Part shown: positions 16,501-32,000 of the stretch, piece by piece | Position numbering within the stretch: the first letter of the stretch is position 1 | Layout of the letters: the number at the start of each line of letters is the position of its first letter | DNA from: Methylorubrum extorquens | Lineage (GTDB): Bacteria > Pseudomonadota > Alphaproteobacteria > Rhizobiales > Beijerinckiaceae | Length of the DNA: 32,000 nt | NCBI GenBank assembly: GCA_900234795.1 | Contig: LT962688.1 | Location: 3,210,001 to 3,242,000 of the forward strand | Reading direction: 5' to 3' | The notes under the pieces: model-generated | Told to the model about the DNA's origin: nothing | Seen by the model: only the letters and a program-made list of their open reading frames with translations | Database searches by the model: none | Made by a program: the position numbers and the translations under genes

Positions 16501-19500
16501 GGGCTCGCTGCTCAAGGTCGCCTTGCCGAGGAAGGTCCGGGCCTTGTTGATCGCCGTGCGCGTCGCCTGCGTCTTCGCTTCGTCGAGACGCGTCTGTTCC
16601 GGGGTCGAAACGGTCACGGTGTTGCTGACCGTGGCGTTCACCGTGCCGGCACTGATCGCCTTCACCCCGACGCCGCCGGCCGTGGCCGTGGCGGTCGCTG
16701 CCTCGATCCGGGCACGGGTCGCCTGGGCGGCGGCAAAGGTGAAGAACCCGCTGCCGAGAATGGCGTCGATGGCCATCCCGACGACCTTGTCGGCCAGCTT
16801 ATCGCTGCCGGTCAGGCCGTCCGGCCGGTAGCCGACGATGTTGAAGGCCGCTGCACCGCCAATGGCCGTACCGCCGGACTTGCTCTCACCCGCGACCGAG
16901 GTCTGCACCCGCGAATCGATATTGGTCACGTCGGACGCGTTGACGGAGATGTCGCCGGTCGCGGCGCTCACGCTTCCGCCCTGGACGGTCGCCGTGGTGC
17001 TGCCGAGGACGATGTTGACGGCGTAGGAGCCGGCCACGCCGAACTTGCTCGCCGCGACGACGGCCTTCGCGTTGGTGGTCAGATCGAGGGCGTTCTGTGC
17101 GGTCAGCGCGACGCCCTGCGCGCCCGTGACGACCGAATTCGTGACGGTCGCCGTGATGTCGCGCTCGACCGTGTTGACGGCGGAGCTGCGGGCAATCCCG
17201 ATCTGCTCGCGCTTCGCCTCCTCGGCGTCGCTCTCCTCCTCGAGGGTGTCGGTCCGGATCGGCTCGACGATGGCCTGCGCCTTGGTCGCATCCATCGCGA
17301 CGACGGAGACAGCGCCGCCGGTCGCGGTCAGGCGCGCTGTCTCGACGACGGCCTTGGTGGAGCCGGTCAGCAGGTTGCGGGCCTGGACGGCGCGCGACTC
17401 GATCGTGGTGTCGTTGGTGGCCGCGACAGCGAGGGACGCGGCGGTGACGGACACGCCGCGCACGGCGACCCGCACGGTGTCGTTCACGTTGATCTGGGCC
17501 GCACCCGCCTTCATCGGTGCGGGCAGCGAATTGTCGGTCTCGCCGTCGCCCGCGACGAGGCCCGTCTCCGGGTTGGCCGGATCGGTCGCATCGGTGGCGG
17601 CGCGGATGCGCACGGCCAGGGTGCCGGCGTTGGCGGCATGGATCCCGGCAACGCCCTCCGCCGAAACGAGGGCGATATCGCCCGCGGCGGGCGCGCCAGC
17701 GGGAAGGCTTCCCGCGGCCGGCACGCCGAGATCGACGCTCGTGAGGCGCGTGACGGTCTGCGTGCCGCTCAGGCCGAACAGGTTGAGGATGTTGATGGCG
17801 GCAGCGGCTTTCGCGGCCGCGCTCGCCGCGCCGTCCAGCGCCGGGTCATCGAACTGGAACCCCGGCACCGATGCGGCATCCCGTGCGACGAGCGTGATCG
17901 TCGAGTCGGTCTTGTCGTCGGCCGAGATCTGAAGCGCGAGGGCAGGATCGCTGCCGGCAAGGGTGCCGGCGCCGGTCTGCTTGATCCTCGGGTCGGTGCT
18001 CACCGCACTCAGAGCGACCGTCACCTGGGTCGTGTTGTTGATCGTCGTTTCGGCCGATTTGATCAGGGCCTTGGCGGCCAGTTCGGCGGGCGTGAAGATG
18101 TCGCTGAAGCTGCCTTCGCCCTTGATCGCGCTCTTGACCTTGTCGAAGGTGCCGGCCGCGGCGTCGGTCACCGTCAGGAGGCCGGGCAGAACGAGCCCGA
18201 TGGCCTTCACATCGACCTTGGCCACCGTGTTGGCGGCGATCTTCACGGTCCCGCCGTTCACCGCCCCCTTGGCGCCGACGGTGATCGTCGAGCTGTTGGT
18301 CTGCTTCGGCGCGACGCTCTTGAGCTGCGACGTCAGGGTCGAGGTCAGCGTGACGGCGTTGTTGACGTCCGTGGTCAGGACGGCATCGCCCGTCCCCGCA
18401 TCAACCGTACCGGCGAGGGTGATTCCGGCAAGCCCGTTGGCGGTGACGCTGATGGTCGAGGTGTCGGCCGGCGCAATATCGGCGATGGCGATGTCGCTGC
18501 GGACGGCGACCCTCACGCCGGTTCCGCGGATGACGGCCCCGTCGTTGACGGTGACGGCCATCTGCGCCGTCGCGCTGCCGGAACGATCGAATCCGGATGT
18601 GGTGAGGACGGGCGTCACGGTCGCGTCGGCCGCGATGGTGACTTGGCCGCTGGCGGACAGCGTCTTGCCCGATGCGACGCTCAGGGTGTTGGCACCCTCG
18701 CCGCCCTTGAAGACGATGCCGAGATCACCCGCCAGCGCGCTCAGGTTGGCCGATACGGCGATGCTGTCATTGCCCGCCCCGCCATCGAAGGTGACGGCGA
18801 GATTTCCGGATGTGGCAGAGAGATCGGTGTCGAAGACGATTCTATCCGCGCCCGCGCCGCCGCTGACCGTGAAGGAGGGTGCCGGCGGCAGGCTGGCCAG
18901 GTGGAGCGTGTCATCGCCGCTGCCCAGGATCACGCCGAGGCTCGTCATCGGCGCGGTAAAGGCGAGGCTGCCGAAGGTCGCCGCCGAGGAGCCGCTGGTC
19001 CTGGCCAGGGTGTAGCTGCTTCCGCCGCCGGACAGCGTCGCATCGATGCTTCCCGCCACGACCGACGAGATGTCGAGCTGCAGGCTCTTCTTGCCGCCGC
19101 CGAACGTTCCGCTGAGGCTGCCGTTCGCGCCGATCGTCAGCTTGTCGTCGGCCGAAGCCGCACCGACGAGGTTGGCGACGTTCGAGAAGCTACCCGCGAA
19201 CTTGCCGGATGCGATCTCGCCGGCATTGGCGCCCGTCAGCTTGAACTCCGCGCCCGATTGCGCGGACCCGGTCGGCGTGTTCAGGAGGGCAAGGGTGTTG
19301 TCGAGATTGTTGCCGGGACTGGTCGGATCGGTGAAGGCGAGAATCGGCTTCTGAGTGGCGCCGAGAAGCTTGAAGGAGTCGGCATCGACCGTAATGGTCT
19401 CTTTGCCGCCCGACCCTTGAAGTGTGTAAGCTTGGTTTGAATTGGCATCGATGATGCCGAACGTGTGGAGCGGGTTCGTGCCCTGTGTCCCGTTCGTGTA

Positions 19501-19836: not shown

Positions 19837-19980
19837 GCCGCTCTCTCCAACCGGAACCTGCGCGGCCTGACCGGGCGCGCAAAGACATAGAGTCCCGGCA
19901 GGCTCCCTGAGCCGCCGGGATCGTTGTCACCGCTATTTTCGATTTCGGCCGGCGCTCAGCGGCTGCGCGTCGGCTCATGG

Positions 19981-20000
19981 CTCCCGGCCTCGACCGGGAG
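19981..20000 (-). terminator. GC-rich hairpin 11 nt after the SapC-family stop codon; possible partial terminator or attenuator between the SapC gene and the giant gene
   Basis: ctcccgg-cctcga-ccgggag gives a 7-bp perfect stem with a 6-nt loop. No U-tract follows on the minus strand, so its function is uncertain. Confidence 0.3.
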
Positions 20001-20010
20001 CGCTTCGGGA

Positions 20011-20811
20011 TCAGGCGTTGCCCGAAGTCTCGAAGTCGGCCGGAGACGCCGGCGCGGTCTCGTCCGCCTGCGCAGACTCGGCCGGAGCACCGATGCGCTC
20101 GGCGATCGGCGCAAGGTTCCGCAGCGAGGCGAGATGCAGATAGATCAGCTCCATCTCGTCCGCCTGCATCAGCTCGGCGAGCTGCTCGGCCGACAGAGCC
20201 TTCAGGCGATCACGGCTGACCACGCTGAAGCCGGAGAGCGTCGAGCGCTGACCGCTGCGCAGCGTGAACTGCGCCTGCATCGGCTCCAGGAGGCCGAACT
20301 CCTGCAGGCGCTTCACGAACAGTTTCGTGCGCTGGAACTGCACTTGATAGGCCTGAAGGAAGCCCAGGACGTTCTGCAGATACTGCGTCCGCTCGCCGTC
20401 GGCGTCGAACAGGCGCTCGCCGCGGCCCTCGTCGTTGCAGCCCGAGAAATCCTCATCGACGCAGAGCGTGAAGGTGGCATCGGCGTCGTTCGCGTTGTCG
20501 CTGGAAAACACGAACGGGTAGCGGCGCAGGAAGGCCGGGACGTACGAACCGGACCACGAACCCGATTCCGATACGTACAGGTTCTCGTTGTCGCGAATGC
20601 CGAGGAGCGCCACCGGAATGATCTCGTCGGCAGCCCCGCCGAACACGATGGAGTACTCAGCCGCCGAATTCGGAAACTCGGCGACCATGAGCGGCACCGA
20701 ATTGACGCCGCGCGCGAAGTCGAACGACGCACCGGCCTTCACGGACCATGACCCGTGACGCTGCCGGGTGACCGGTACGGCACGCTCGTAGATGAGAAGC
20801 TGCTTACTCAT
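20011..20811 (-). CDS. SapC family protein (266 aa)
   Basis: The motif string ...VPLMVAEFPNSAAEYSIVF...IPVALLGIRDNENLYV...GSWSGSYVPAFLRRYPFVF... matches the SapC (PF07277) consensus as I remember it. Codon usage has high GC3. It lies directly upstream of the giant gene on the same strand. Confidence 0.85.
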   Translation of the reverse strand: MSKQLLIYERAVPVTRQRHGSWSVKAGASFDFARGVNSVPLMVAEFPNSAAEYSIVFGGAADEIIPVALLGIRDNENLYVSESGSWSGSYVPAFLRRYPFVFSSDNANDADATFTLCVDEDFSGCNDEGRGERLFDADGERTQYLQNVLGFLQAYQVQFQRTKLFVKRLQEFGLLEPMQAQFTLRSGQRSTLSGFSVVSRDRLKALSAEQLAELMQADEMELIYLHLASLRNLAPIAERIGAPAESAQADETAPASPADFETSGNA

Positions 20812-21110
20812 TCCGACCCCATTTGGCGGCGCTTGTGCGATTTCCGCATCTTCGCCTCCTGCTGCATATCAGTACCGCCCACCGCTGCGGAGGGATGGTT
20901 CCATTTTTTCGATTGATCCAGCGTCTCAGATGCTGAACTCGCCGCCCCGGCCGCGACGGCCTCACCCGAGAGGATCAATCCTGGCGGCCCATTCTCGAAT
21001 GCGCGGGTCTCGGAAGCCATCGTGATCGGGGTCGGCGCGAAAATAATCATAGGCTGTACCCGGTTCGACACGACGTCGAAGCTGGGCTTGGCGCTCCGAT
21101 AGACTGCCAT
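20808..21110 (-). CDS. Hypothetical 100-aa ORF whose stop overlaps the SapC start (ATGA)
   Basis: ATG at 21110 and TGA at 20808-20810 overlapping the SapC ATG (20809-20811). My hand-counted GC3 is roughly 70 percent, higher than the overlapping alternative frame. I recognise no family. Confidence 0.3.
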   Translation of the reverse strand: MAVYRSAKPSFDVVSNRVQPMIIFAPTPITMASETRAFENGPPGLILSGEAVAAGAASSASETLDQSKKWNHPSAAVGGTDMQQEAKMRKSHKRRQMGSE

Positions 21111-21653
21111 ACCATGACAGCAAAGCTTCGCGATTGATGGGCCTGACCGCTCCGCCAGCGTGGCATTCGTCGATCATTTGAAGCAACGGCATCAGCCGAA
21201 AATAGGAAAACACCGAAAATCGACCTCAATCGACATGGCACTGCAGATTTATTTTACAATCGATCCGGCAAGCGCCATTCGGCAAACGGTTTTATTCGAA
21301 TCCATGCGGTTTTGCGAGGACATTTACTTCGAGCGAAGGAATTTCAGCCGATATGTCAGCGGCTACGAATACCCCGGCGATCGTCCAAGCTATCACTGTT
21401 GAGGAGGTTGCCTCTTGAAACCTCCACGGGCGACTTTAGCTGTACCGACGCTTCGACGGCGCCGGACAGCTCAGAGTTATTTTTAGCAGGGACGCGAATG
21501 GTATTTTGCATCCTATGTTGGAGTAATCTGCAATATCACTCGCATCTCTGCTGATAAATTTCATTCGGAACAGATGTTTCTACTAAGCCCCCCTCCTTTT
21601 CCGCGAATGTCGGCGGCCATTACCGGAATAGGAAAAGGCGCCCGATCGCTTTC

Positions 21654-22676
21654 TTGGAAGTCGATTGTCCCGTGACCTCTCTCCAGCGTCTGGATTATCT
21701 CACGACCGGGCTGCCCCACGCGACCGCAGCCGAAATCTGGAGAGGCATGGTCGGCCCCCTGTTCGAACCGCGGGCCTTCCATCCCGGTCAGCAAAATCCG
21801 ACCGGCTCGGCGAGCGGTGCCATCATCGGCGACATCATGGTGGCACGGGTGGTGTTCGGGGCGCAGAGTTATCGCCGCGACCGGGACCTCATCGCCCGCA
21901 CGCCGGATCACATCCTCTTCCATCTCTACAACGTTGGCGGCTTCAGCGGCCTCATCAGCGGGCAGCAAACCACGATCTGGTCGTCGCAGGTCGCGATCAT
22001 CGACCTCGCCCAGGAGATCGATACGCTCGCGGCCTCGTCGGACACGGTCGCGCTGATCGTCCCGCGGGCCTTGCTGCAGGGCCTGGCCGACAACCCGTTG
22101 CCGCCGCGGCTCGATGCCGGACGCAACCGGCTCCTGGCCGCCCATCTGATCGCGCTGCGTGAACGCAGCACGCTGATCGAAGAACCGGATGTCGAGGAGG
22201 TCGTGACGCAGACGCTCGATTTCCTGCGCGCGCTGCTCGATCCCTCCCGCGCCGAGGAGACCGCCGCGACGCCGGCGCTCGCCACCTGTCACCTCACTCT
22301 CGCCGAGCAGACGATCCGCACCCATCTCGCCTCGCCGGACCTGTCGCCGGAGATGATCGCCAACGAGATCGGCGTGTCGCGCGCGACCCTCTACCGGATG
22401 TTCGCCCCCTATGGCGGCATCATGCGCTCGGTCCAGGAACGACGGCTCCTGGCCGTCCGGGCCGCCCTCAGCGACCCGCTGGAGACCCGCCGCCTCTCCC
22501 GGCTCGCGACCGATTTCGGGTTTCGCGGCAAGGTCCATTTCAGCCGCAGCTTCCGCGCCCAGTTCGGCATCACCGCGAGCGAGTTCCGGGCCGAGCAGGT
22601 GGCCCTTGCCCAGCGGGATGCGCGGAGCGATCTTGGCGTCCTGCACGACTGGTGGCCCCGGCTCGGGAACCGATAG
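21654..22676 (+). CDS. AraC family transcriptional regulator (340 aa from TTG 21654; an alternative GTG start is at 21672)
   Basis: The C-terminal double-HTH text ...LSPEMIANEIGVSRATLYRMF...RRLLAVRAAL...LSRLATDFGFRGKVHFSRSFRAQFGITASEFR is typical AraC/XylS. The N-terminal ~200 aa is a non-conserved sensor domain. Confidence 0.88.
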   Translation: MEVDCPVTSLQRLDYLTTGLPHATAAEIWRGMVGPLFEPRAFHPGQQNPTGSASGAIIGDIMVARVVFGAQSYRRDRDLIARTPDHILFHLYNVGGFSGLISGQQTTIWSSQVAIIDLAQEIDTLAASSDTVALIVPRALLQGLADNPLPPRLDAGRNRLLAAHLIALRERSTLIEEPDVEEVVTQTLDFLRALLDPSRAEETAATPALATCHLTLAEQTIRTHLASPDLSPEMIANEIGVSRATLYRMFAPYGGIMRSVQERRLLAVRAALSDPLETRRLSRLATDFGFRGKVHFSRSFRAQFGITASEFRAEQVALAQRDARSDLGVLHDWWPRLGNR

Positions 22677-22807: not shown

Positions 22808-23740
22808 TCAAGCCGGAGCCCGGCTCCAGGCCTGCCGCCGGGGCGCGGGCAAGGGGTGGACGAGATCGGCTTCGAGCCCGAATTTCGTGACATAGGCCGT
22901 GTTCAGGCCGAGGCATTCACGGGAGCTGCAGCTCTCCCGATGGGCGCATTGATAGAAGCCGTTGCGCTCGAATTCCCGCCAGAAATCCGGGTCGATGTGC
23001 AGTTCGGGCTGGCCGTTGACGAGGGCATTGCCGAGATCGCCGAGCAGGCATTCGGGGAAGTTCTTCACCTCGACGGCGCGTCCGAGCGCACGGGCGCGCA
23101 GGACCGCCTCGCGCAGATAGGGCAGGACGTCGGCGTGGCGGGCAACGAGGCCCTTCTCGTCGCGCTCGGACATCGGGAAGTAGACCCAGAACTCCATCTG
23201 GGTCAGGCGCTGGAGGTGGGCCAGCCGCGTGACGAGATCGGGCAGCAGGCGGTAGCTCCGCTCGGTCACCACGGTGTTGGTGAGGGTCTCGACGCCCTCC
23301 ATCGCGTCGAGGGTCTCCAAGCCGCGCAGCGCGCGCTCGAACGAGCCCGGCACCAGGGTCAGCGCGTCGTGGCTCGCCGCATCGCTGCCGGCGATGGAGA
23401 CGAAGAACTCGTCGACGCCGGCCTCGACCAGCCGGCGGCAGTAGCTCGGCTGGCCGAGATGCATGCCGTGGGTCTGAATGCGGACATGCGCGAAGCCGCT
23501 GGCTCTCGCCCGCCGGGCGAGTTCGGGCAGGTCGCGCCGCAGGGTGATCTCGGACCCGGTCAGGATCAGGCCGGTCCAGCGCCGCTCGCGGGCGTTCTGG
23601 CTGAGAATTTCCTCGAAATGCGCGTCCGATTCCGGCGCGAGCCGGTCCATCGTGCCCTCGATCATGCAGTGGACGCATTTGAGGTTGCAGCGAAACTCCA
23701 TCGTCAGGGAGACGTAGGCGGCGTGGTCGTAGCGTCCCAT
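22808..23740 (-). CDS. Radical SAM enzyme (310 aa) with a C-terminal Cys cluster
   Basis: The start is set at ATG 23740 (MGRYDHAAYVSLTMEFRCNLKCVHC...). The CxxxCxxC motif lies at ~23669-23692, and GSEITL plus a TIM-barrel-like core follow. The C-terminal QCAHRESCSSREC lies at 22913-22951. The tracked 587-aa ORF extends upstream only as Arg/Pro-rich junk overlapping the neighbouring gene. Confidence 0.85.
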   Translation of the reverse strand: MGRYDHAAYVSLTMEFRCNLKCVHCMIEGTMDRLAPESDAHFEEILSQNARERRWTGLILTGSEITLRRDLPELARRARASGFAHVRIQTHGMHLGQPSYCRRLVEAGVDEFFVSIAGSDAASHDALTLVPGSFERALRGLETLDAMEGVETLTNTVVTERSYRLLPDLVTRLAHLQRLTQMEFWVYFPMSERDEKGLVARHADVLPYLREAVLRARALGRAVEVKNFPECLLGDLGNALVNGQPELHIDPDFWREFERNGFYQCAHRESCSSRECLGLNTAYVTKFGLEADLVHPLPAPRRQAWSRAPA

Positions 23741-23757
23741 GGCGTCGTCCCAGCCCT

Positions 23758-24633
23758 TCAGAGCAGACCGTAATACGCGCTCTTCGTCACCGTCAGCCTG
23801 CCGTCGATCATCGCGTAGTCGATCCCGACATCGAACAGCAGATGTGACAGGCGCCGCCGCTCCGACCGCACGAAGTCGCGGATCGCGGGCGGATAGGCGA
23901 GCCGGTCGAGGAAGGCGATGAGCCCGTCGATGCCGACCCGCGAGAAATAGACGCCGTCGCACAGGCGCTTGTTGGCCACGACCACGACGCCGCAGCGCAT
24001 CAGTTCGGGCCACAGGATCGCGTCGAGATCGAGGCCGGGCAGATCGAAATGGGCCGAGCAGGCGGCCTTGGCCGCAATCGCGTCGCGCTCGCGGGCGGCG
24101 TCGAAGAAGCTGTAGAGGTTGTCGAAGACGAGGCCGTCGGCGGTGAGTCCGTAGCTGAGCCCGGACGAGACGCTGCTGCCGGGATTGCCGACATAGATGT
24201 TGAGGCGGTCGAGGCTCCGCGCGCCCCGGGCCAGGGCGTCGTCGAGATCGAGCGAGAACATGAAGTAGGGTCGCGCGCCCGCATAGCGCAGATCGCAGGG
24301 CACGAACGGCGCCAGGATCGCCAGGACGCGCTCGATAGAGACCGTGCGGTCGAGCCGGGCGTAGTCGTAGAAGTAGAACTCCCAGGTCGTGACGCCGTCC
24401 CGGAGCTTGGCGCCCCAGACGCTGCGGCCGGGGCCGAGGCCGTCGCGCAGCGCGTCGCAGATCGTGAACAGCTTCGGATCCGCACCCGCGCAGGCCAACG
24501 AGTGCCAGAGCAGGCTCGCTTGCCGCAGGCGTCCCGCCGTCGGCCCGACCGGCTCGTAATCCCACAGGCAATAATCGGCGTAGCGGTCACCCGGCGCGGA
24601 CAGTTCCAGGCGGGCGGGGTCGAGGCCGGTCAT
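23758..24633 (-). CDS. Hypothetical protein (291 aa), family not recognised; appears related to the C-terminal extension of the upstream flavoprotein
   Basis: The ATG at 24633 overlaps the upstream stop (ATGA, 24630-24633). The text is protein-like with repeated strand-like segments (TWEFYFYDY, YFMFSLDLD, LNIYVGNP, LLFDVGIDYAMIDGRLTVTKSAYYG). GC3 is high. The upstream part of the tracked 401-aa ORF is junk. Confidence 0.75.
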   Translation of the reverse strand: MTGLDPARLELSAPGDRYADYCLWDYEPVGPTAGRLRQASLLWHSLACAGADPKLFTICDALRDGLGPGRSVWGAKLRDGVTTWEFYFYDYARLDRTVSIERVLAILAPFVPCDLRYAGARPYFMFSLDLDDALARGARSLDRLNIYVGNPGSSVSSGLSYGLTADGLVFDNLYSFFDAARERDAIAAKAACSAHFDLPGLDLDAILWPELMRCGVVVVANKRLCDGVYFSRVGIDGLIAFLDRLAYPPAIRDFVRSERRRLSHLLFDVGIDYAMIDGRLTVTKSAYYGLL

Positions 24634-27014
24634 CCGCCGGCCACGCCGGAATACACGGTGACGAAGGGCTGGCCGTCCCGCCCGACGCCGCCGGCGACAT
24701 GCCCCAGCGTCTCCTGAAGCCGCTCTCGCAGAACCATCGCGGCCGCGTCGCGCGGCACGCCGAGATCGACGAAGGCTTGGCCGAGCAGCGGCTCCGCATC
24801 GGCCACGGTCAGGCCGCAGGCATAGAGGTTGAGGTCGTAGGACAAGCGTAGCCCCGGCTCCTCGCGGGCTTCGAGATAGTGGACCGCACCGCGCCCCCTC
24901 TCCTGCGCCAACCGGAGGATCGCATGGGCGGTGTCGCGCGCGGGCGCGCCGGCCGGCCCCCACTCACCGGCCATCCGGGTCAGCCGCGCCGCGATCTCCT
25001 CGGGGCCGCGCACCCGTGGCCAGTGGTAGAGGGTGACGACGGGCGGATGCGTTCCCCCTAGCTTCCACTTATAGGCGCGATGGACCAGCATCGGCTCCGC
25101 GCCCGCCTCGTCCGCCCCGGTCCAGGCCGCGTCAGTGCGCGACGACCATTCGACGTAGAGCTTGTAGAGCGCGCCCGACGGGCCGTCCTCGTAGCCGAGA
25201 TGAAGGATGTCCGCCCCGCCGATCACGCCGGCGGCCTCCGCGCGCTCCCGCTCCGGCAATCCGAGCCCGGCGGCCAGCCGGTCGAGCGTCGCCTCGGGTG
25301 TGAGGCCGAGGCTCGCGCGGTGCAGGCTCATGAGGAAGCGGTCGGTCTGCAATCCCGCCGGGGAGGCCTTCACCGAGCGCTCGTAGCCGAAGGGCTGGCC
25401 GAGCCCCGCCACCAGATCGGCGAGACGGGCGCCCTCCGGCGTCCTGCGCAGAGCCGCCGGGCCGGCCGGCGCCGAAGCCGCCGCGATGCGCACCGCAGGC
25501 GCGGCGACGGGGGCCTCGCCGTGCAACGCGTCCATCAGACGGACATGCGGCGCCATCGCCCCGGCGATCTGGGCCGACTGCGCACGGATACTGGCGAGCA
25601 GACGGGCGATCTCGCGGCCATCGGCGACATCGACCGGAGCGAAGGGCCGACGCGGCAGGAAATCGGCGCCGGAGAATAGGAGGTAATGATCGCCCTCGCT
25701 GAACGGCGCCTCCTCGTTCAACGCGACATGCCCGGCCAACTCGTAGAGGTCGAGGCGGTCGGCGAGCCGGTCGGGGATCATCACCGCGCGGGCCGCCGCC
25801 CAAAACGGCTCCGACCGCCGGCCGAGAACGTAATGCGCGGCCACCGCCTCGGCCGCATCGTCGTGGAAGCGGTTCAGGCGCGCGGCATAGGCACGGCGCA
25901 GCACGTCACCGCCTTCCCCCTGGCGCGGCAGGTAGGCGAGGAACGTTTCGAGTCCGGCCAGGACGAGATCGAGATCGAAGCCGAGGAGCGGCTCGACCGC
26001 TCCGGCCGCCCCCATGGCGACGACGTTGCGCTGCCACGGTGCGGCGCGGCGACCGTGACGCAGTTCCGCATCGACGATGCCCGCCTGCCCATCGAAGGTG
26101 CGGCGCAGGGTGGCCGCCGCCGCATCCGGCGGCGTGGTCCGGATGTCGTAGACGAACAGATGCTCCGTGCGATCGGCCAGCGGCAGCGACGCCGTCCATC
26201 CCTCCGCCCGGCCGCGATAGGCGGTGAAGGGCGGCACCTCGGGCGATCGCGGCAAGGACAGGCGGGCCACGCGGTCTCCGGGGCCGCTGCCCGCGACCCA
26301 GGCCTCGCCGAGCGCGGTGCCGATGAGCTGCGCGGCCGCGCCGGTACAATCGAGGAAGATGTCGCCCTCGACCGTCTGTCCTCCGTCGAGGACGAGGGCG
26401 CCGACATCGCCGTACAGGTTGCGCTCGATCTCGCGGACCCGCCCGGTCACCCCGCGCACGCCTTCGGAAAGCGCCAACTCGCGCAGGAAACGGACGAGAG
26501 CAGTTCGGTCGAGGTGATAGCCGTAATCACCGGATTCGGTGAGCGAGGACCGATCCGCCAAGGGGCGGGGTCCGCGCCCCTCGGCCGCCATCAGCGCCTG
26601 GGGCGCGTAATCGGCGTAGCTCCCGGCCTCGTCCTCGGCGCCCTCGCCGCGAAGCTTCATCCAGTAGTGGAACAGGTCGCGGCCGGCGATCCGCGGGCCG
26701 CAGGCACCGAAGGGGTGCCAGTGGCCCTGGCCCTCGGCGAACCAGTCGTCGTAGCGGCTGGCGAGCCGATAGGTCGCCGCGCAGCGGCGCATGAAGATCG
26801 CCTCGTCGATGCCGAACCCCTTGAGGAAACGGGTGAAGGCCGGGCGCGTCGCCAGGGCGGCGGAGGCCCCCGCAGCCGGGGCCGACCCGACGAGGGTGAT
26901 CGTCCAGCCCGCCCGGCGCAGGACGCGCTTCAGATAGAGCGCGGCCATCCAGCCGGCGGGACCGCCGCCGGCGACGACCAGGCGCGGAGGCGCGGAGCGT
27001 TCGGACCTGAACAT
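24630..27014 (-). CDS. Tryptophan-halogenase-family FAD-dependent protein (divergent motifs) fused to a ~280-aa C-terminal domain of unknown function (794 aa)
   Basis: The start is set at ATG 27014 (MFRSERSAPPRLVVAGGGPAGWMAALYLKR...), with GGAG ~12 nt upstream. GGGPAGWMAA and GHWHPFG resemble the Trp-halogenase family N-terminus. The site expected for WxWxIP reads GWTASLPL (26178-26201). The tracked 972-aa ORF is an upstream junk extension across the kinase gene. Confidence 0.8.
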   Translation of the reverse strand: MFRSERSAPPRLVVAGGGPAGWMAALYLKRVLRRAGWTITLVGSAPAAGASAALATRPAFTRFLKGFGIDEAIFMRRCAATYRLASRYDDWFAEGQGHWHPFGACGPRIAGRDLFHYWMKLRGEGAEDEAGSYADYAPQALMAAEGRGPRPLADRSSLTESGDYGYHLDRTALVRFLRELALSEGVRGVTGRVREIERNLYGDVGALVLDGGQTVEGDIFLDCTGAAAQLIGTALGEAWVAGSGPGDRVARLSLPRSPEVPPFTAYRGRAEGWTASLPLADRTEHLFVYDIRTTPPDAAAATLRRTFDGQAGIVDAELRHGRRAAPWQRNVVAMGAAGAVEPLLGFDLDLVLAGLETFLAYLPRQGEGGDVLRRAYAARLNRFHDDAAEAVAAHYVLGRRSEPFWAAARAVMIPDRLADRLDLYELAGHVALNEEAPFSEGDHYLLFSGADFLPRRPFAPVDVADGREIARLLASIRAQSAQIAGAMAPHVRLMDALHGEAPVAAPAVRIAAASAPAGPAALRRTPEGARLADLVAGLGQPFGYERSVKASPAGLQTDRFLMSLHRASLGLTPEATLDRLAAGLGLPERERAEAAGVIGGADILHLGYEDGPSGALYKLYVEWSSRTDAAWTGADEAGAEPMLVHRAYKWKLGGTHPPVVTLYHWPRVRGPEEIAARLTRMAGEWGPAGAPARDTAHAILRLAQERGRGAVHYLEAREEPGLRLSYDLNLYACGLTVADAEPLLGQAFVDLGVPRDAAAMVLRERLQETLGHVAGGVGRDGQPFVTVYSGVAGG

Positions 27015-27043
27015 CGAGTTGTCGGCTCCGCGAGCGTCGCCCC

Positions 27044-27703
27044 TCACGCCGTCGGCGTCGGGAGGGCCGTAAGGGTGGCGTGGAGAGTGGATTGGATTGC
27101 GGACTGAATGGCGTCGAGGTGCGCGGCGAGCGTGCCGGCGCCGAGAATCTGGTCGGCCGCCGGCCGGACCCGTTCGCGCTGCAGCGCGTAGGTCGGGTGC
27201 AGCAGGGCATCGTAGCGCCCGAGATAGGCATCGAGCGCCTCGAGAAGCCCGGGGGCGGCCGTCGGATCGCGCCCCGCCGCCTCGGTGAAGCTGCGCAGCT
27301 TGCGCGCCAGCGCGACATCCAGGGGCAGATCGAGCCAGACCAGATGGTCGATCTGCGCGCCCGTTCCGGGATGGGCCCGGCCGAGCAGGGTGTCGAGAAC
27401 GATCACGGGCCGTGCCGCGCGCCGCGACAGGCGCAGCGTGCCGCCGCGCTCCCGGTCCGGCACCGGCTCGCCGCGCCGCAGCCGGGCCAGATCCTCGGCG
27501 AGCCCCGGCACGGGCACCGCGTCGAGGGGTGCGCCGCCCGCGAGCCATGCCGCCACCCGCTCCGGCGGCCAGCCGGTGATTTCCTCATAGGCGTCGTAGG
27601 CGAGCACGGGCGCGCCGCCGAAGCGCTCCGATAGGGCGTGGGACAAGGTGGTCTTGCCGCTGCCCGGCGGTCCGCTGACCGCGAGAACGAAGGGCGCGCT
27701 CAC
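27044..27703 (-). CDS. P-loop NTPase / small-molecule or nucleotide kinase-like protein (219 aa)
   Basis: Walker A VSGPPGSGKTT lies at the N-terminus, and the size and layout are those of uridine-kinase/AAA-kinase-like proteins. The GTG start at 27703 overlaps the methyltransferase stop (GTGA). Confidence 0.75.
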   Translation of the reverse strand: MSAPFVLAVSGPPGSGKTTLSHALSERFGGAPVLAYDAYEEITGWPPERVAAWLAGGAPLDAVPVPGLAEDLARLRRGEPVPDRERGGTLRLSRRAARPVIVLDTLLGRAHPGTGAQIDHLVWLDLPLDVALARKLRSFTEAAGRDPTAAPGLLEALDAYLGRYDALLHPTYALQRERVRPAADQILGAGTLAAHLDAIQSAIQSTLHATLTALPTPTA

Positions 27704-28752
27704 CGGGCACCGCCGGGCTTGCGCGCCGCGATCAGGTGGAACGGCGTCTCAAACGCAAGGCAGCGGACGCTGCAATCGACGAAGCCGAGAGCGGCCAGCG
27801 TCTCGGTATAGAGGTCCGCATCCCGGAAGAAGGGCTGGAACACGAGGTCGGCGGATTGGACGTAGCCGAGGGGGCGCTCGCGCAGAGCCATGGGTGCCCG
27901 CTCATAGATCGCGAGACGCCCGCCGGGGGCGAGCGCGCGGGCGGCGCGTTCGAGCAGGGCACGGGCCTCGCCGGCCGGCCAATCGTGCAGGACCGACTTG
28001 AAGGTCACGAGGTCGTGCCCCTCGGGCAGGGGATCGCGCCGCATGTCGCCGGCCTGGAACGCGACGCGGGCGCCTTCCGGCCGGTCCGCGAGGTTCTCGC
28101 GGCCGAGCGCGCAGACGACGGGCAGGTCGAACACCGTCGCGGTCAGGTCCGGCGCGCGGCGGCAGGCCTGGGCGGCGAACTCGCCGCTATTACCGCCGAG
28201 ATCGAGCAGGCGCCGATGCCGGCCCGGCTCGATCCGGTCGAGGCCCGGCCCGGCCTCGTAGCGGGTCAGGCAGGTGGTGTAGGCGACCCAGCGCCGGGTC
28301 GCGTCGAGGTTGTCCGGCGTGATCTCGAAGCAGCGGTCGTAGCGGAACAGCTCGAAGGTGCGCGAGGCCGCCATGAAAGCCGGAAGGTCGGCGACGAAGG
28401 CGGGGAAATGCCGGCGCAGATCCTCGGACGCGGCGGCAGCGAAGGCGAGCTTCGCCTCGATGAGGTCGCGGCAGGGCAGCACGGCGCGGAACGCCTCGCT
28501 CAGCCCGATCCGGCCCGGCGCGGGCTCGGCGGCGATGCCGGCACCGACGAGGAGGCCGGTCAGGGAGGCAAGTTGCGGCCGCTCGAGCCGAAACTCCTCG
28601 GCCAGCCCCGAAATGGTGGTGTCCGCGCGGCGGGCGAGCCGGTCGATCAGACCCGATGTGAGGGCGAAGCTGAGGGCGTGCGCGGCGGCTTCGCTTTCGA
28701 GGAAGCGGTCCACGCGCGGAAACTCCGGGCCCGGCAGCTCCGGCGCCGACAT
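27700..28752 (-). CDS. Class I SAM-dependent O-methyltransferase, family-2 type (350 aa; an alternative ATG at 28776 adds 8 aa)
   Basis: LLDLGGNSGEFA (SAM motif I), ...FDLP..., ...FKSVLHDWP... and ...PGGRLAIYE are typical of PF00891-type O-methyltransferases. A winged-helix/dimerisation-like N-terminus is present. GGAGGGGGGAGGG lies just upstream of the ATG at 28752. Confidence 0.85.
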   Translation of the reverse strand: MSAPELPGPEFPRVDRFLESEAAAHALSFALTSGLIDRLARRADTTISGLAEEFRLERPQLASLTGLLVGAGIAAEPAPGRIGLSEAFRAVLPCRDLIEAKLAFAAAASEDLRRHFPAFVADLPAFMAASRTFELFRYDRCFEITPDNLDATRRWVAYTTCLTRYEAGPGLDRIEPGRHRRLLDLGGNSGEFAAQACRRAPDLTATVFDLPVVCALGRENLADRPEGARVAFQAGDMRRDPLPEGHDLVTFKSVLHDWPAGEARALLERAARALAPGGRLAIYERAPMALRERPLGYVQSADLVFQPFFRDADLYTETLAALGFVDCSVRCLAFETPFHLIAARKPGGAR

Positions 28753-28845
28753 CCCGCGCCCTCCCCCCTCCGGCATCAGCGTGACGCCAAGCTCAGGCTG
28801 CGGCGCGGGACTCGGTCAAACCTCTGGAATGAAGGAGGCTTTGAA

Positions 28846-28908
28846 TTGAGACGCTGGATCAACGCATTTTTCTTCGTGGCCATTGCCGCCGCCACATTCC
28901 ATTCGTGA
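28846..28908 (+). CDS. Candidate 20-codon small ORF (M/L)RRWINAFFFVAIAAATFHS: leader peptide or small hydrophobic membrane peptide
   Basis: The strong SD GAAGGAGG (28831-28838) lies 7 nt before TTG 28846. The ORF sits in a low-GC intergenic region, and an intrinsic terminator follows about 85 nt downstream. No homology is claimed. Confidence 0.3.
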   Translation: MRRWINAFFFVAIAAATFHS

Positions 28909-28993
28909 TCGAATCGCACAAACCGTGCAATAGCTCCTATCGCCCTGTGTGCCATAAATGCAAGGCGACTTGGTTTCGCTGGGTTCGCAAGGC

Positions 28994-29020
28994 AAGCCGT
29001 CGTTCAACGACGGCTTTATT
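28994..29020 (+). terminator. Rho-independent terminator-like hairpin (plus orientation)
   Basis: aaGCCGTCG-ttcaa-CGACGGCtt followed by TTTATT gives a 7-9-bp stem, a 5-nt loop and a T-rich tail on the plus strand only. Confidence 0.6.
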
Positions 29021-29114
29021 CGTGCAATGTCTTGACGAGGACTTCAGCTTCGCGATCCAGCCCGGCATCGGCCCGGCGGTGATGTCGAGGAGCGCGAGGT
29101 CACGTCGCGCGGTA

Positions 29115-29435
29115 ATGCGTGCAGATGAGGGAGCAGTCGTGAGCGAGAGCAGCAAGCCCGGTGCCGCCGATCAGGTGCGTGCGATCGAATGGCGTGAAGA
29201 CAGCATGTCGACACAGTTCGCCAACGTCGTGAACGTGCAGGGCACCCGCGAGCAGGTGGATCTGTTCTTCGGCACCAATCGGACCTGGAACCTCGCCGAG
29301 ACAGAGAGCGTGGTGGTCGATCTCTCGAACCGCGTGATCCTCACGCCGCTCGCAGCCAAGCGCCTCCACTCCGTCCTCGGCGGCGTGCTGACCGAGTACG
29401 AGAACCGCCACGGGCGCCTCGACCTCGACGCCTGA
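29115..29435 (+). CDS. DUF3467-like small protein (106 aa from ATG 29115; 98 aa from GTG 29139, which has the better SD, AGGGAG)
   Basis: ...QFANVVNVQGTREQVDLFFG...NRVILTPLAAKRLHSVLGGVLTEYENRHGRL matches my memory of the DUF3467 pattern ((Y/F)xN...E..lDFg...R.imtP..AKrL...L...l..YE..fG.i). The upstream part of the tracked 176-aa ORF lies in low-GC intergenic DNA and is unlikely to be coding. Confidence 0.7.
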   Translation: MRADEGAVVSESSKPGAADQVRAIEWREDSMSTQFANVVNVQGTREQVDLFFGTNRTWNLAETESVVVDLSNRVILTPLAAKRLHSVLGGVLTEYENRHGRLDLDA

Positions 29436-29436
29436 C

Positions 29437-29463
29437 CCGTAATGCCCCGCCGCCGCATTACGG
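29437..29463 (+). promoter_or_regulatory. Intercistronic hairpin between the DUF3467-like gene and the HlyD-family gene
   Basis: ccgtaatgc-cccgccgcc-gcattacgg gives a perfect 9-bp stem and a 9-nt loop, starting 2 nt after the stop codon. No clear U-tract follows. Confidence 0.5.
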
Positions 29464-29521
29464 CGGCCGGGCCCTTCTGCAACGAGACCCTGAGCGCCGT
29501 CAGTCAAGGAATCCGGGGGCC

Positions 29522-31408
29522 ATGAGCGAGCGTTTGGCGGTGGAGGGCGCGTCCGCAGCGAGCCCGGCCGCGCGCCTGTCCCTGCTGGAGCCGGCCCTGT
29601 GGCAGGTGCTCCGGACCTCCCAGACGCTTCAGGCCGCGGCGGAAGCGTGGCTCACGCTCCAGGCGCCGATGCTCGGCGCCCCGCGGGCCTGCGTCCTGCT
29701 TCCGGGCACGTCGGTGGGGCTCGCCCCGCTCGCCGTGTTCCCGGCTCAATCCGAGTGCGAAGCCGGCCTGCGCGAGACCGCCGAGGCCGCCTTTCGCGAG
29801 AACCGCCCGGTCGTGCAGGCGATGGCGGAGGCCGGGCCGCATCCGGGCGCCGCGCCGCAGGGGTCGGGCGCGTGGATCGCGCTGCCGCTGGTTCTGGACG
29901 AGGCGTGTTTCGCCGTCACCGCCTTCGCCCTCGACAGCCTCGACAAGGACGAGCTGCGCGCGGCGATCCGTCAGGTGCAGTGGGGCAGCGCGTGGCTCGT
30001 CGCCAAGCAGGCCGAACTGATCGGGCGGGGCGAGCGCCGGACGCTGGCCCGCTCGCGCTCCGTCCTCGACCTGCTCGCCGGGGTGCTCGAGCAATCGCGC
30101 TTTTCCGCCGCCTGCACCGCCGCGGTGACGGACCTTGCCATCGCCTTTTCCTGCCAGCGCGCGGCAATCGGCTTCGTGCGGCGCGGCAGCACCCGGATCG
30201 CGGCGATCTCGCACTCGGCGCAGTTCGGCCGCGAGATGAACCTCGTGCGCCGCCTCGGCGCCTGCATGAACGAGGCGATCGACCAGCGCAGCCTGATCCT
30301 GTTCCCGCCGCCCGAGAACGAGGCCACCGTCACGACGGCGCATGCCGACCTCGCCCGCCTGCAATATGGCGGCCGAGTGCTGACCGTGCCGATGCTCGTC
30401 GATGACCGCTTCGTCGGCGCCATCACCCTGGAGCGGCCCGCCGACCAGCCGTTCAGCCTCGAGATCGTCGAGCAGGTGAGCGCCTGCGCCGCCGCCATCG
30501 GCCCGGTGCTGGAAGACAAGCGGCAGAACGACCGATGGCTGGTGCTGAAGGCCACCGACGCCGTGATGAACGGCGCGCGGCTGGTCTTTGGCCCGAACCA
30601 TACCGGGCTCAAGCTCGGCCTCGCCGCGACGCTGGCCGTGGTCCTGGCGCTCTCGGTGATCAAGATCGATTACCGCGTGACTGCGGACGCCCGCGTCGAA
30701 GGCCTCGTGCGCCGTTCCGTCGTCGCCTCCTACGACGGCTACCTGAAGACCGCCGGGCACCGCGCCGGCGACACGGTGCGCAAGGGCGATCTCCTCGCCG
30801 CCCTGGAAGACCGCGATCTCGCCCTGGAGCGCCTGCGCTGGGTCACCGAGCGCCAGCAGCGCACCTACGAGTACGACAAGGCGCTCGCCACCCGGCAGCC
30901 CGCCACGATCAACGTGGTGAAGAGCCAGATCGATCAGGCCGACGCGCAGATCCGCCTGCTCGACGAGCAGATCGCGCGCTCGAAATTCACCGCGCCCTTC
31001 GACGGCTTGATCGTCTCCGGCGACCTTTCGCAATCCATCGGCGGCGCCATCAGCCGCGGACAGGTGCTGTTCGAGATCGCTCCGCTCGACAGCTACCGCG
31101 TCGTCCTCAGCGTGGACGAGCGCCTGATCGCCGACCTGCGCGAGGGCCAGACCGGGCACGTGCTCGCGACCTCCCTGCCCGACCAGCCGCAAGTGCTGAC
31201 GATCCAGACCATCACCCCCGTGGCCGAGGCCAAGAACGGCCGCAACCTGTTCCGGGTCGAGGGCCGGATCGAGGACGGCGCCACCCGGCTGCGGCCGGGC
31301 ATGGAAGGCATCGCCAAGGTCGATGTCGACCGGCGGCTGCTCGCCTGGGTCTGGGCCCGGCCGATCGTCGATTGGGTGCACCTCGCCCTCTGGCACTGGT
31401 GGCCGTGA
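29522..31408 (+). CDS. HlyD-family membrane fusion / periplasmic adaptor protein with an N-terminal cytoplasmic GAF-like region (628 aa)
   Basis: The N-terminal ~330 aa end with GAF-like text (...VLTVPMLVDDRFVGAITLERPADQPFSLEIVEQVSACAAAIGPVLE). One TM segment (LKLGLAATLAVVLALSVI) follows. Then comes an HlyD-type lipoyl/coiled-coil/beta-barrel region (YDGYLKTAGHRAGDTVRKGDLLAALEDRDL...FTAPFDGLIVSGDL...RPGMEGIAKVDV). Confidence 0.85.
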   Translation: MSERLAVEGASAASPAARLSLLEPALWQVLRTSQTLQAAAEAWLTLQAPMLGAPRACVLLPGTSVGLAPLAVFPAQSECEAGLRETAEAAFRENRPVVQAMAEAGPHPGAAPQGSGAWIALPLVLDEACFAVTAFALDSLDKDELRAAIRQVQWGSAWLVAKQAELIGRGERRTLARSRSVLDLLAGVLEQSRFSAACTAAVTDLAIAFSCQRAAIGFVRRGSTRIAAISHSAQFGREMNLVRRLGACMNEAIDQRSLILFPPPENEATVTTAHADLARLQYGGRVLTVPMLVDDRFVGAITLERPADQPFSLEIVEQVSACAAAIGPVLEDKRQNDRWLVLKATDAVMNGARLVFGPNHTGLKLGLAATLAVVLALSVIKIDYRVTADARVEGLVRRSVVASYDGYLKTAGHRAGDTVRKGDLLAALEDRDLALERLRWVTERQQRTYEYDKALATRQPATINVVKSQIDQADAQIRLLDEQIARSKFTAPFDGLIVSGDLSQSIGGAISRGQVLFEIAPLDSYRVVLSVDERLIADLREGQTGHVLATSLPDQPQVLTIQTITPVAEAKNGRNLFRVEGRIEDGATRLRPGMEGIAKVDVDRRLLAWVWARPIVDWVHLALWHWWP

Positions 31409-31419
31409 GGGGTTGAGGC

Positions 31420-32000
31420 ATGTCCCAGTCCCTGTTCAGCCAATCGTGGTACCGCGTCGCGGCCCTGCGCCCGCGCCTGCGCCGCCATGCCGAGATCCAC
31501 CGGCAGAGCTTTCGCGGCGAGGTCTGGTACGTCCTTCAGGATCACCAGACCGGGCGCTTCCACCGCCTCTCGCCCGCCGCCAACCTCATCCTGTGCATGA
31601 TGGACGGGCGCCGCACCCTGCAGGAGGTGTGGGAGGCGGCCGCGCGCCGCAACGAGGATGACCCGCCGACCCAGGACGACACGATCCGTCTGATCTCGCA
31701 GCTCCACGGCTCGGACCTGCTCCAGGGCGACCTGCCGCCCGATCTCGCCGAACTCGCCGAGCGCTCGGAATCGACCGCGCGCCGCACCCTGATCGCCCGG
31801 GTGAAGAACCCGCTGGCCCTGCGCTTCCCGCTGTTCGACCCCGATCCGTTGCTCGACCGGGTCGCGCCGTATTTCCGGCCGCTCTTCTCGGTCTGGGGGC
31901 TCGCGGTCTGGCTCGCGGTGGTGATTGCCGGCCTCGTCGTGGCCGGGTTGCACGCGGGCGAGCTGACCGGCGACGTCGCCGGTCAGATGCTCTCGGCGCA
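31420..32000 (+). CDS. N-terminal part of a 'putative peptide zinc metalloprotease' type protein (PqqD-like N-domain, then membrane region; M50/HlyD-fusion family). Truncated by the window edge.
   Basis: ATG at 31420 follows GAGGGGTTGAGG. MSQSLFSQSWYRVAALRPRLRRHAEIHRQSFRGEVWYVLQDHQTGRFHRLSPAANLILCMMDGRRTLQEVWEAA...DDPPTQDDTIRLISQLHGSDLLQGD... is the conserved N-terminus I remember for this family. A first TM segment (VWGLAVWLAVVIAGLVVAGL) follows. It is absent from the ORF track because there is no stop codon within the window. Confidence 0.8.
   Translation, partial: MSQSLFSQSWYRVAALRPRLRRHAEIHRQSFRGEVWYVLQDHQTGRFHRLSPAANLILCMMDGRRTLQEVWEAAARRNEDDPPTQDDTIRLISQLHGSDLLQGDLPPDLAELAERSESTARRTLIARVKNPLALRFPLFDPDPLLDRVAPYFRPLFSVWGLAVWLAVVIAGLVVAGLHAGELTGDVAGQMLSA

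Follow-up and report, generated by a model that had tools for sequence, protein, structure and literature searches.

The 32,000-nt window of the Methylorubrum extorquens genome analysed here (contig LT962688.1 of assembly GCA_900234795.1, positions 3,210,001 to 3,242,000; all positions below are counted from the first nucleotide of the window) contains two divergent operons, one of tailoring-type enzymes on the minus strand and one of export proteins on the plus strand, together with a giant minus-strand gene whose product begins with a LEPR-XLL domain. We propose that the two operons probably constitute a conserved maturation and export system for this giant surface or extracellular protein, about two-thirds of which falls within the stretch first singled out (22808-32000). 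The association between the operons and the giant genes is close to certain, and the biochemical roles are much less so. A first-pass annotation, made from the sequence alone, had taken the two operons for an uncharacterised modification and export system without a recognisable precursor gene. All of its gene calls were reproduced by Pfam and NCBIfam searches and on contigs encoding identical proteins, and the view that the operons belong together was borne out by their recurrence in many genomes and by fusions that join them. The missing precursor, in contrast, was an artefact of the chosen coordinates, since the giant LEPR-XLL gene about 3 kb to the left and the adjacent SapC gene are conserved partners of the operons.

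The minus-strand operon encodes a radical S-adenosylmethionine (SAM) enzyme, a 291-aa protein of no known family, a flavoprotein with a C-terminal extension (here termed halC), a P-loop kinase-like protein and an O-methyltransferase (Table 1). For the analysis of synteny, the 80 best loci seeded on the 291-aa protein were collected with 10 kb of flank on each side, and all window proteins were compared with them. Of these loci, 74 have a halC-type domain, which immediately precedes the 291-aa gene in 66, and 76 have a radical SAM gene, which comes immediately after the 291-aa gene in 66 of 75. The O-methyltransferase was present in 62 loci, SapC in 55, the M50 fusion protein of the export operon in 48, the kinase in 41 and the flavoprotein in 37. 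A giant open reading frame (ORF) was present in 44 of the 55 loci whose flanks reached 8 kb or more on each side, and SapC lay on the same strand downstream of the 291-aa gene in 50 of the 67 loci with enough flank. The conserved tailoring core is thus halC, the 291-aa protein and the radical SAM enzyme, usually followed by SapC and the giant LEPR-XLL gene, and the O-methyltransferase, the kinase and the flavin halogenase are lineage-specific additions. The smallest arrangement was observed in the Gammaproteobacteria Maricurvus and Kistimonas, where TolC, halC, the 291-aa gene, the radical SAM gene, SapC and the giant LEPR gene form a single operon. The set comprises Alpha-, Beta-, Gamma- and Deltaproteobacteria, Chitinivibrionales and one Nostoc, and homologues of both operons are syntenic across all of these; the first-pass annotation, which would have been refuted by homologues that are never syntenic, passes this check.

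The translated giant protein begins with MAFPF, continues with about 50 basic residues and reaches FDPLEPRVLL, making up a leader of roughly 70 residues. The LEPR-XLL domain (NF012209) was matched at residues 55-77 with 24.1 bits (NCBIfam cut-off 17), and a transmembrane (TM) scan of the first 200 aa found neither a TM segment nor a hydrophobic signal peptide. The protein further contains LktA_tand_53 filamentous tandem repeats in 10 stretches, its C-terminus falls outside the window, and in related assemblies the product of the orthologous gene is given as 10,864 and 15,714 aa. Within the window the gene switches frame at 7435-7586, where a 4133-codon ORF stops at 7435 and an overlapping open stretch (3-7586) continues off the window; the switch is either an artefact of sequencing or assembly, the gene being repetitive, or a true frameshift or pseudogene. 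Eight other ORFs of at least 150 aa in 1-7532 had no Pfam match, since it is the continued giant gene that is actually coding in this stretch.

The leader is conserved well beyond this genome. A MA[F/Y]PF start was found in 44 of the 46 giant genes adjoining the tailoring core, and it is followed, in Alpha- and Gammaproteobacteria alike, by about 50 mostly basic residues and the motif (L/I)xF(D/E)xLEPRxLL(N/S)AD; wherever the start was visible, giant ORFs near 291-aa loci carried LEPRxLL at the N-terminus. A search with the first 159 residues against 1.84 billion representative proteins retrieved 81 clusters with members of up to 7,804 aa, nearly all of them with LEPRxLL near the N-terminus and about half with an M-x-x-P-F start. 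In one case the leader had been lost in annotation: on the Alisedimentitalea plasmid NZ_CP123586.1 (record approximately 183224-183400), the start of an 8,148-aa “calcium-binding protein” is probably misannotated, and an in-frame upstream GTG adds (M)SFPF...LEPRLLLAAD, a leader of the same type that the annotation omits.

The plus-strand operon begins in the window and runs beyond its right end. Contigs encoding an identical GAF-HlyD protein revealed that the operon continues with a 715-aa PqqD-M50 protein, a 678-aa SecA-like protein, a second HlyD-type adaptor and a small unknown protein, which defines a five-gene cassette of DUF3467, GAF-HlyD, the PqqD-M50-HlyD fusion, a truncated SecA paralogue and the second HlyD. 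The GAF-HlyD protein is composed of a cytoplasmic GAF domain, one TM segment (residues 361-384) and a periplasmic adaptor domain, and both adaptors exceed the RND_mfp cut-off of 94.9 bits in NCBIfam (98.5 for GAF-HlyD, 137.3 for the other). The 715-aa protein, whose full-length copy on CP021054.1 is 100% identical across the shared region, is a triple fusion of a PqqD domain (PF05402, 29.9 bits, cut-off 23.4), an M50 protease (Peptidase_M50, 29.7 bits, cut-off 27.2) with HEAGH and NPLLRFDG motifs and about 5-6 TM segments, and a C-terminal HlyD-like region; HExxH and NPxxxxDG are invariant across seven aligned M50 fusions. The likeness to RiPP (ribosomally synthesised and post-translationally modified peptide) maturation that the first-pass annotation had pointed out is real, in that the closest families are RiPP leader peptidases: the daptide intramembrane metalloprotease scores best in NCBIfam (166 bits against 300), followed by YydH/LiaK (39 against 225), both below their cut-offs. 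The SecA-like protein retains SecA_DEAD (nucleotide-binding domain 1), SecA_PP_bind (the preprotein cross-linking domain) and P-loop_SecA (nucleotide-binding domain 2), and its C-terminal part is gone, the match covering the first 490-550 or so of about 790-814 model positions (15-492 of 814 in one model). With 590 bits against a cut-off of 814 and an incomplete domain set, it falls outside the housekeeping SecA and SecA2 families. The retention of the preprotein cross-linking domain suggests that a long polypeptide is exported.

The cassette occurs much more broadly than the tailoring module. Metagenomes searched with the M50 fusion as seed yielded at least 573 relatives, and in the 80 loci kept, wherever the contigs were long enough, the gene order GAF-HlyD, M50 fusion, SecA-like gene and second HlyD was constant. 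DUF3467 was detected in 34 of these loci, always as the first cassette gene, and genes for the halC barrel, the 291-aa protein or the radical SAM enzyme occurred in only three (L092, L105 and L159). A giant ORF rich in Thr, Ser and Gly ends just upstream of the cassette in 18 loci, including 14 of the 21 with at least 6 kb upstream. Three plasmids display the same neighbourhood at greater length. In Methylosinus, a gene for an 8,848-aa giant is followed by DUF3467, HlyD, a PqqD protein, the SecA-like gene, an adaptor and TolC; in Pseudosulfitobacter, a 12,918-aa “LEPR-XLL domain-containing protein” is followed by HlyD, a site-2 protease, SapC, the SecA-like gene and an adaptor; and in Alisedimentitalea, the 8,148-aa giant is followed by HlyD, M50 and SecA, with SapC in divergent orientation. 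The earlier label of peptide-type export was therefore off the mark, as this five-gene set with its SecA paralogue stands beside giant genes even where the tailoring genes are absent. TolC/OEP genes are located in the operon in Methylosinus, Maricurvus and Kistimonas, and none was found in the stretch read for the window organism. No ATP-binding cassette (ABC) transporter was found across about 160 loci examined, and none is encoded within or next to the cassette on CP021054.1 or the annotated plasmids; in the metagenome loci the conserved cassette genes leave no gap for one. In agreement with the first-pass annotation, the window itself contains no ABC transporter, YcaO, LanM or known small precursor family.

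Two side observations concern the cassette. The SecA-like gene is labelled “prepilin peptidase” in two records (the Methylosinus and Pseudosulfitobacter plasmids) and “DEAD/DEAH box helicase” or “preprotein translocase subunit SecA” elsewhere, and this inconsistent naming has kept the cassette hidden. In two related loci (L083/L084), a complete dTDP-rhamnose set with rmlA, rmlD, rmlB and rmlC-type domains directly follows the cassette at 17832-21375 of the locus, past the point that corresponds to the right end of the window, and hints at a link with surface polysaccharide, to which S-layer-type proteins are often anchored.

Both proteins of the tailoring core that lacked an annotation are confidently predicted to adopt prenyltransferase-type (ABBA/PT-barrel) folds, according to AlphaFold (AF2) models built on homologue alignments. 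The 291-aa protein, which is 90-97% identical to Methylorubrum proteins, belongs to a family of at least 911 homologues with members in 270 GTDB species genomes and no Pfam domain. Its model (predicted local distance difference test score, pLDDT, 87.7; predicted template modelling score, pTM, 0.88) was compared with the PDB by Foldseek, and the top 39 matches were all aromatic prenyltransferases, with a best E value of 4e-7. Similarly, the halC model (pLDDT 94.3, pTM 0.91) had prenyltransferases for all of its top 50 matches, including the peptide type enzymes PagF, PirF, LimF, KgpF and DciF, with E values down to 6.5e-7. Invariant Lys, Arg and Tyr residues are present in the alignments of both families. 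The common fold was revealed by structure prediction alone; the notion that the two proteins are sequence paralogues was rejected, as neither pairwise BLASTP nor profile-profile comparison with hhalign gave any signal. A homologue search with the halC domain of the window returned 3 matches, probably because candidate collection needs shared exact words, and a 14-sequence alignment returned 21.

In most genomes the halC domain stands alone, as a protein of about 270 aa, and its fusions vary with lineage. Fusion to the flavoprotein was found only in the Methylobacterium, Methylorubrum, Bosea and Enterovirga loci, fusion to the kinase (477-480 aa) in Mesorhizobium and Aquamicrobium loci, and fusion to a methyltransferase in one metagenomic protein. 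In addition, three Deltaproteobacteria-type loci (L072, L078 and L082) encode DUF3467-halC fusions, in which Pfam DUF3467 scores 35-53 bits (cut-off 25). A variant of these was noted at 6957-9041 of L078, where a single 695-aa protein consists of DUF3467 and two tandem halC-type barrels. Because the barrel is fused to DUF3467, the kinase, the methyltransferase and the flavoprotein in turn, we infer that the tailoring module may work in complex with the chaperone-like DUF3467 protein on the export substrate, an idea favoured mainly because the DUF3467-halC fusion physically links the two operons.

The first-pass assignment of the flavoprotein to the halogenase family stands, and its catalytic motifs are lost: the catalytic Lys is replaced by Arg (ATYRLAS), WxWxIP by WTASLP, EPLEST by EPLLGF and GEATIP by ALATRP, and the GxGxxG motif for flavin adenine dinucleotide is kept (AGGGPAGW). 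The same losses were observed in the Methylobacterium, Methylorubrum and Bosea orthologues, where the catalytic Lys is Arg in all but one (Ala). All remaining orthologues, the Enterovirga fusion included, retain every halogenase motif, and solved halogenases likewise keep the Lys, the Glu and WxWxIP. With these motifs lost, the window flavoprotein is not a halogenase; its orthologues elsewhere in the family probably are. In the radical SAM enzyme, CX3CX2C (C18, C22, C25) and four C-terminal cysteines (C231, C265, C271 and C276) are invariant in 65 of 65 orthologues; the four C-terminal cysteines suggest an auxiliary cluster, and their number falls short of the seven-cysteine SPASM domain. All NCBIfam matches of this enzyme are far below cut-off, the best being HxsC4 (93 against 500 bits), and its nearest curated or solved relatives, HxsC4, AhbD, BlsE and PqqE, are distant. 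No TM segment was found in any tailoring protein by the TM scan.

SapC accompanies a particular feature of the giant proteins, namely the motif at their extreme N-terminus. In a tally across phylogenetically non-independent sequences, the MAFPF-type motif was present in 46 of 49 giants with SapC and in none of 5 without it. The motif is found in the Pseudosulfitobacter giant and, as (V)SFPF upstream of the misannotated start, in the Alisedimentitalea giant, both of which have SapC and lack the 291-aa and radical SAM genes; it is absent from the giants of Methylosinus, L156, L160 and L163, near which no SapC was seen, and from L078, which has the enzyme trio and no SapC. The alternative that the motif marks the enzyme trio was rejected on these grounds, since the two plasmid giants with SapC and no trio have it and L078 does not. 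Its presence tracks SapC, and SapC probably reads or acts on M-x-[F/Y]-P-F. Sequence searches of the PDB with the 291-aa protein, SapC and DUF3467, as well as a SapC profile search, yielded nothing useful.

Taken together, these associations suggest the giant protein as the substrate and allow the following scheme. DUF3467 would hold the nascent giant protein, and the cytoplasmic PqqD domain would dock its LEPR-XLL leader. The SecA-like ATPase could then power the passage of the unfolded chain through an assembly that the M50 protein and the adaptor anchors would form in the inner membrane, the three HlyD-type periplasmic modules would bridge to TolC, and the intact M50 site would cut off the leader. 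The tailoring module would be an optional, cytoplasmic addition that acts before or during export, and SapC may read the extreme N-terminus of the giant protein. A more specific version, which we hold tentatively and rate as less likely than not, is that the plus operon represents a distinct and widespread class of envelope-spanning secretion (a SecA-like ATPase, a PqqD-site-2 protease-adaptor fusion, two further HlyD adaptors, DUF3467 and TolC) in which giants are exported by an N-terminal LEPR-XLL leader instead of a C-terminal type I signal, and that the minus operon performs RiPP-style tailoring, with two prenyltransferase-fold enzymes and a radical SAM enzyme, of a protein with many thousands of residues.

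Several observations weigh against a maturation and export system for the giant protein. Its support consists of gene content, motifs, folds and associations, from which we infer each functional step. The match of the barrel models to known prenyltransferases is moderate (TM-scores 0.44-0.61), and ABBA barrels mostly act on small aromatics. No leader-recognition domain was found in the tailoring module itself, and 11 of the 55 well-flanked loci have no giant ORF within 10 kb. In Pontibrevibacter, the giant paired with the 291-aa and radical SAM genes lacks a LEPR motif and has an ordinary Sec signal. The giant of the window may itself be inactive or mis-sequenced because of the frameshift near 7435-7586. 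Finally, the accessory enzymes look like small-molecule enzymes, which keeps alive the explanation considered below. The Pontibrevibacter locus is also unusual in its layout: on plasmid NZ_CP049813.1 the order is DUF3467, a 536-aa protein, a divergent PqqD/M50-like protein, the giant of about 3,900 aa, the 291-aa homologue and the radical SAM gene, and a canonical pair of M50 fusion and SecA-like genes lies elsewhere on the same plasmid.

If the enzymes act on something other than the giant protein, the product of the minus operon may be a small molecule, such as an aromatic compound that is prenylated, methylated and, elsewhere, halogenated. This compound would act on the giant system as a ligand, anchor or signal, or would itself be exported. 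The affinities of the enzymes are compatible with such a product. The O-methyltransferase belongs to the natural-product class PF00891, its nearest solved structures being DnrK, RdmB and hydroxyindole O-methyltransferase; BlsE and a lipid synthase come closest to the radical SAM enzyme. Most of the prenyltransferases that Foldseek matched to the barrels act on small molecules, the intact flavoprotein orthologues keep all motifs of free-tryptophan-type halogenases, and the adaptor has a GAF domain that could accommodate a small ligand. A halogenated metabolite has also been predicted for gene neighbourhoods of SapC, a flavin-dependent halogenase and a TonB receptor, in which SapC is a predicted enzyme (Iyer et al., 2010, PMC2938197). 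Unlike those neighbourhoods, the system described here has no TonB receptor, JmjC or 2-oxoglutarate dioxygenase, ties SapC to a giant gene and an export cassette, and has a degenerate halogenase in the window. Furthermore, single operons exist in which the core genes are flanked by tolC on one side and by sapC and the giant gene on the other, the barrel and the first protein of the export cassette occur as fusions in three lineages, and the Foldseek matches include peptide prenyltransferases as well. The export cassette, GAF domain included, is common without tailoring genes and is therefore independent of their product. On balance we consider a small-molecule pathway unlikely, although it deserves to be kept in mind.

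Alternatively, the barrel and radical SAM enzymes could modify the DUF3467 protein, as their target or as a carrier, and so turn it into a modified plug, cofactor carrier or export chaperone. With about 100 aa it is a small protein, its gene stands first in every cassette in which it was detected, and it is fused to the barrel domain in the three Deltaproteobacteria-type loci; however, it is also found in cassettes without tailoring genes, its conserved part ends in a variable tail of a few to a few tens of residues, and fusions of enzyme and substrate are unusual, which makes this role improbable. As a RiPP precursor DUF3467 was rejected, having no core-like tail and carrying C-terminal enzyme fusions in some genomes. 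Most improbable of all is a RiPP-type cluster with an unrecognised small precursor, in which M50 would be the leader peptidase and the HlyD proteins a peptide exporter: the fusion of PqqD to an M50 protease nearest to the daptide and YydH/LiaK proteases and the presence of radical SAM and methyltransferase genes speak for it, but no conserved small ORF was found (a 100-aa ORF at 20808-21110 is limited to close Methylorubrum relatives), the DUF3467 tail is short and variable with an enzyme domain fused at its C-terminus in some genomes, the SecA paralogue with its preprotein cross-linking domain points to a long polypeptide, and the conserved neighbour is a giant gene bearing its own conserved leader.

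Maturation and export of the giant protein, which we prefer, would resemble several known systems without coinciding with any of them. With type I secretion (HlyBD-TolC, LapBCE, and Campylobacter fetus SapDEF with SapC), it shares HlyD adaptors, a TolC channel, a very large repetitive substrate without a Sec signal and a SapC gene. It differs in that the defining ABC transporter is absent, the ATPase is a truncated SecA paralogue, and PqqD-M50 is fused to one of the three adaptor modules; in addition, the conserved signal is the N-terminal LEPR-XLL leader instead of a C-terminal RTX-type signal, with the C-terminus of the giant lying outside the window. The logic is similar to that of a peptidase-containing ABC exporter, here split over a SecA-like motor and a site-2-type protease. 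With RiPP systems (daptides, the YydFGHIJ and LiaK epipeptides, and PqqD/PqqE), it has in common the PqqD-M50 fusion with intact motifs, the nearby radical SAM and methyltransferase genes and a presumed N-terminal leader. A leader-recognition domain and a leader peptidase are thus present as in a RiPP cluster, and a small precursor is not; the protease scores fall far under the cut-offs, the presumed substrate has thousands of residues, and no ABC exporter occurs. The ABBA prenyltransferases, such as the cyanobactin enzymes PagF, LimF and KgpF, are matched by the predicted fold of both unknowns and by the barrel homologue fused to a methyltransferase, AgeMTPT being a fused methyltransferase-prenyltransferase; unlike them, neither protein has sequence-level membership in Pfam or NCBIfam, and prenyl transfer by them is putative. 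The M50 fusion, the SecA-like protein, the barrels and DUF3467 are all without a model in NCBIfam (June 2026).

In the literature on LEPR-XLL, on DUF3467 and on SecA with HlyD and M50, no description of the cassette was found, and the export cassette is apparently undescribed. The only report touching the system is a preprint on two giant proteins of Chlorobium chlorochromatii, Cag_663 and Cag_665, of 36,806 and 20,647 aa with N-terminal LEPRxLL (bioRxiv 10.64898/2026.03.19.712371). Their genes have sapC directly upstream and tolC adjacent and are co-expressed with a horizontally acquired secA, the proteins were detected experimentally in the partner cell, and a sap-like type I route, C-terminus first, has been proposed for them (bioRxiv 10.64898/2026.03.19.712371). 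By its own description, on which this comparison is based, the preprint mentions no M50, PqqD, DUF3467 or SecA-like cassette and no radical SAM or prenyltransferase-like genes.

Few gene products are as poorly understood as the giant bacterial proteins of 5,000 to 36,000 residues, whose route out of the cell is largely unknown. The locus provides a concrete parts list, consisting of a giant with a conserved leader and a five-gene cassette in which a SecA paralogue and a site-2-type protease take the place of the ABC transporter, and it connects to the transfer of LEPRxLL giants observed between the partner cells of the Chlorochromatium consortium. If the proposed roles are true, the system would provide a new energising module for the tripartite exporter family, an explanation for the curated but functionally blank LEPR-XLL domain, and roles for SapC, DUF3467 and two large unannotated families with the prenyltransferase fold. 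Methylorubrum is genetically tractable.

The features of the window, which has a G+C content of about 69%, are compiled in Table 1.

Table 1. Genes, domains and intergenic region of the 32,000-nt window, with the evidence for each.
Feature	Position	Strand	Evidence and remarks
Giant gene, distal part	1-7586	minus	2528-codon open stretch in the other frame, leaves the window at its start (six-frame scan)
Giant gene, proximal part	7435-19836	minus	4133 codons; translation, NCBIfam LEPR-XLL
SapC family protein	20011-20811	minus	Pfam PF07277, 241 bits; directly upstream of the giant gene
AraC-family regulator	21747-22676	plus	Pfam HTH_18
Radical SAM enzyme	22808-23740	minus	PF04055
291-aa protein	23758-24633	minus	no Pfam, NCBIfam or PDB sequence match
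Flavoprotein, 794 aa, halogenase family with C-terminal extension of about 300 aa	24630-27014	minus	
halC barrel domain (C-terminal extension of the flavoprotein)	24633-25445	minus	predicted fold (AF2 and Foldseek)
Halogenase-family domain	25524-27014	minus	PF04820, 286 bits, residues 12-457 of 794
P-loop kinase-like protein, uridine-kinase/PRK08233-like	27044-27703	minus	weak PRK/AAA matches; NCBIfam PRK08233, 62 bits
Class I O-methyltransferase	27700-28776 (alternative start 28752, giving 350 aa)	minus	PF00891, 83 bits
Divergent intergenic region	28777-29138 (28753-29138 with the alternative start)		362-386 nt
DUF3467 protein, cassette gene 1	29139-29435	plus	PF11950, 59 bits
GAF-HlyD adaptor	29522-31408	plus	Pfam GAF and HlyD_3; NCBIfam RND_mfp
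PqqD-M50-HlyD fusion, first 193 of 715 codons	31420-32000	plus	PqqD at residues 37-101; gene cut by the window end

The junctions between the minus-strand genes either overlap by 4 nt or leave a gap of 17-29 nt, which is consistent with one operon. The 100-aa ORF at 20808-21110 on the minus strand, which was detected in close Methylorubrum relatives alone, overlaps the SapC start by 4 nt; it has been gene-called in related assemblies and has no family match. The AraC-type regulator is confined to the Methylobacterium/Methylorubrum/Bosea lineage, with tblastn matches in loci L003-L013 and L017 only. The control region shared by the two operons, described in the first-pass annotation as 340 nt of low G+C, is essentially as stated, with a measured length slightly greater (Table 1) and a G+C content of 58% against 71% in the flanking genes. 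An Rfam search of the whole window gave no match, which rules out a riboswitch in this region, and a scan of the intergenic region for the sigma-70 consensus also gave none. The same region contains a perfect 11-nt inverted repeat at 28994-29016, AAGCCGTCGTT-C-AACGACGGCTT, and this palindrome may be a candidate operator, for example for the neighbouring AraC-type regulator.

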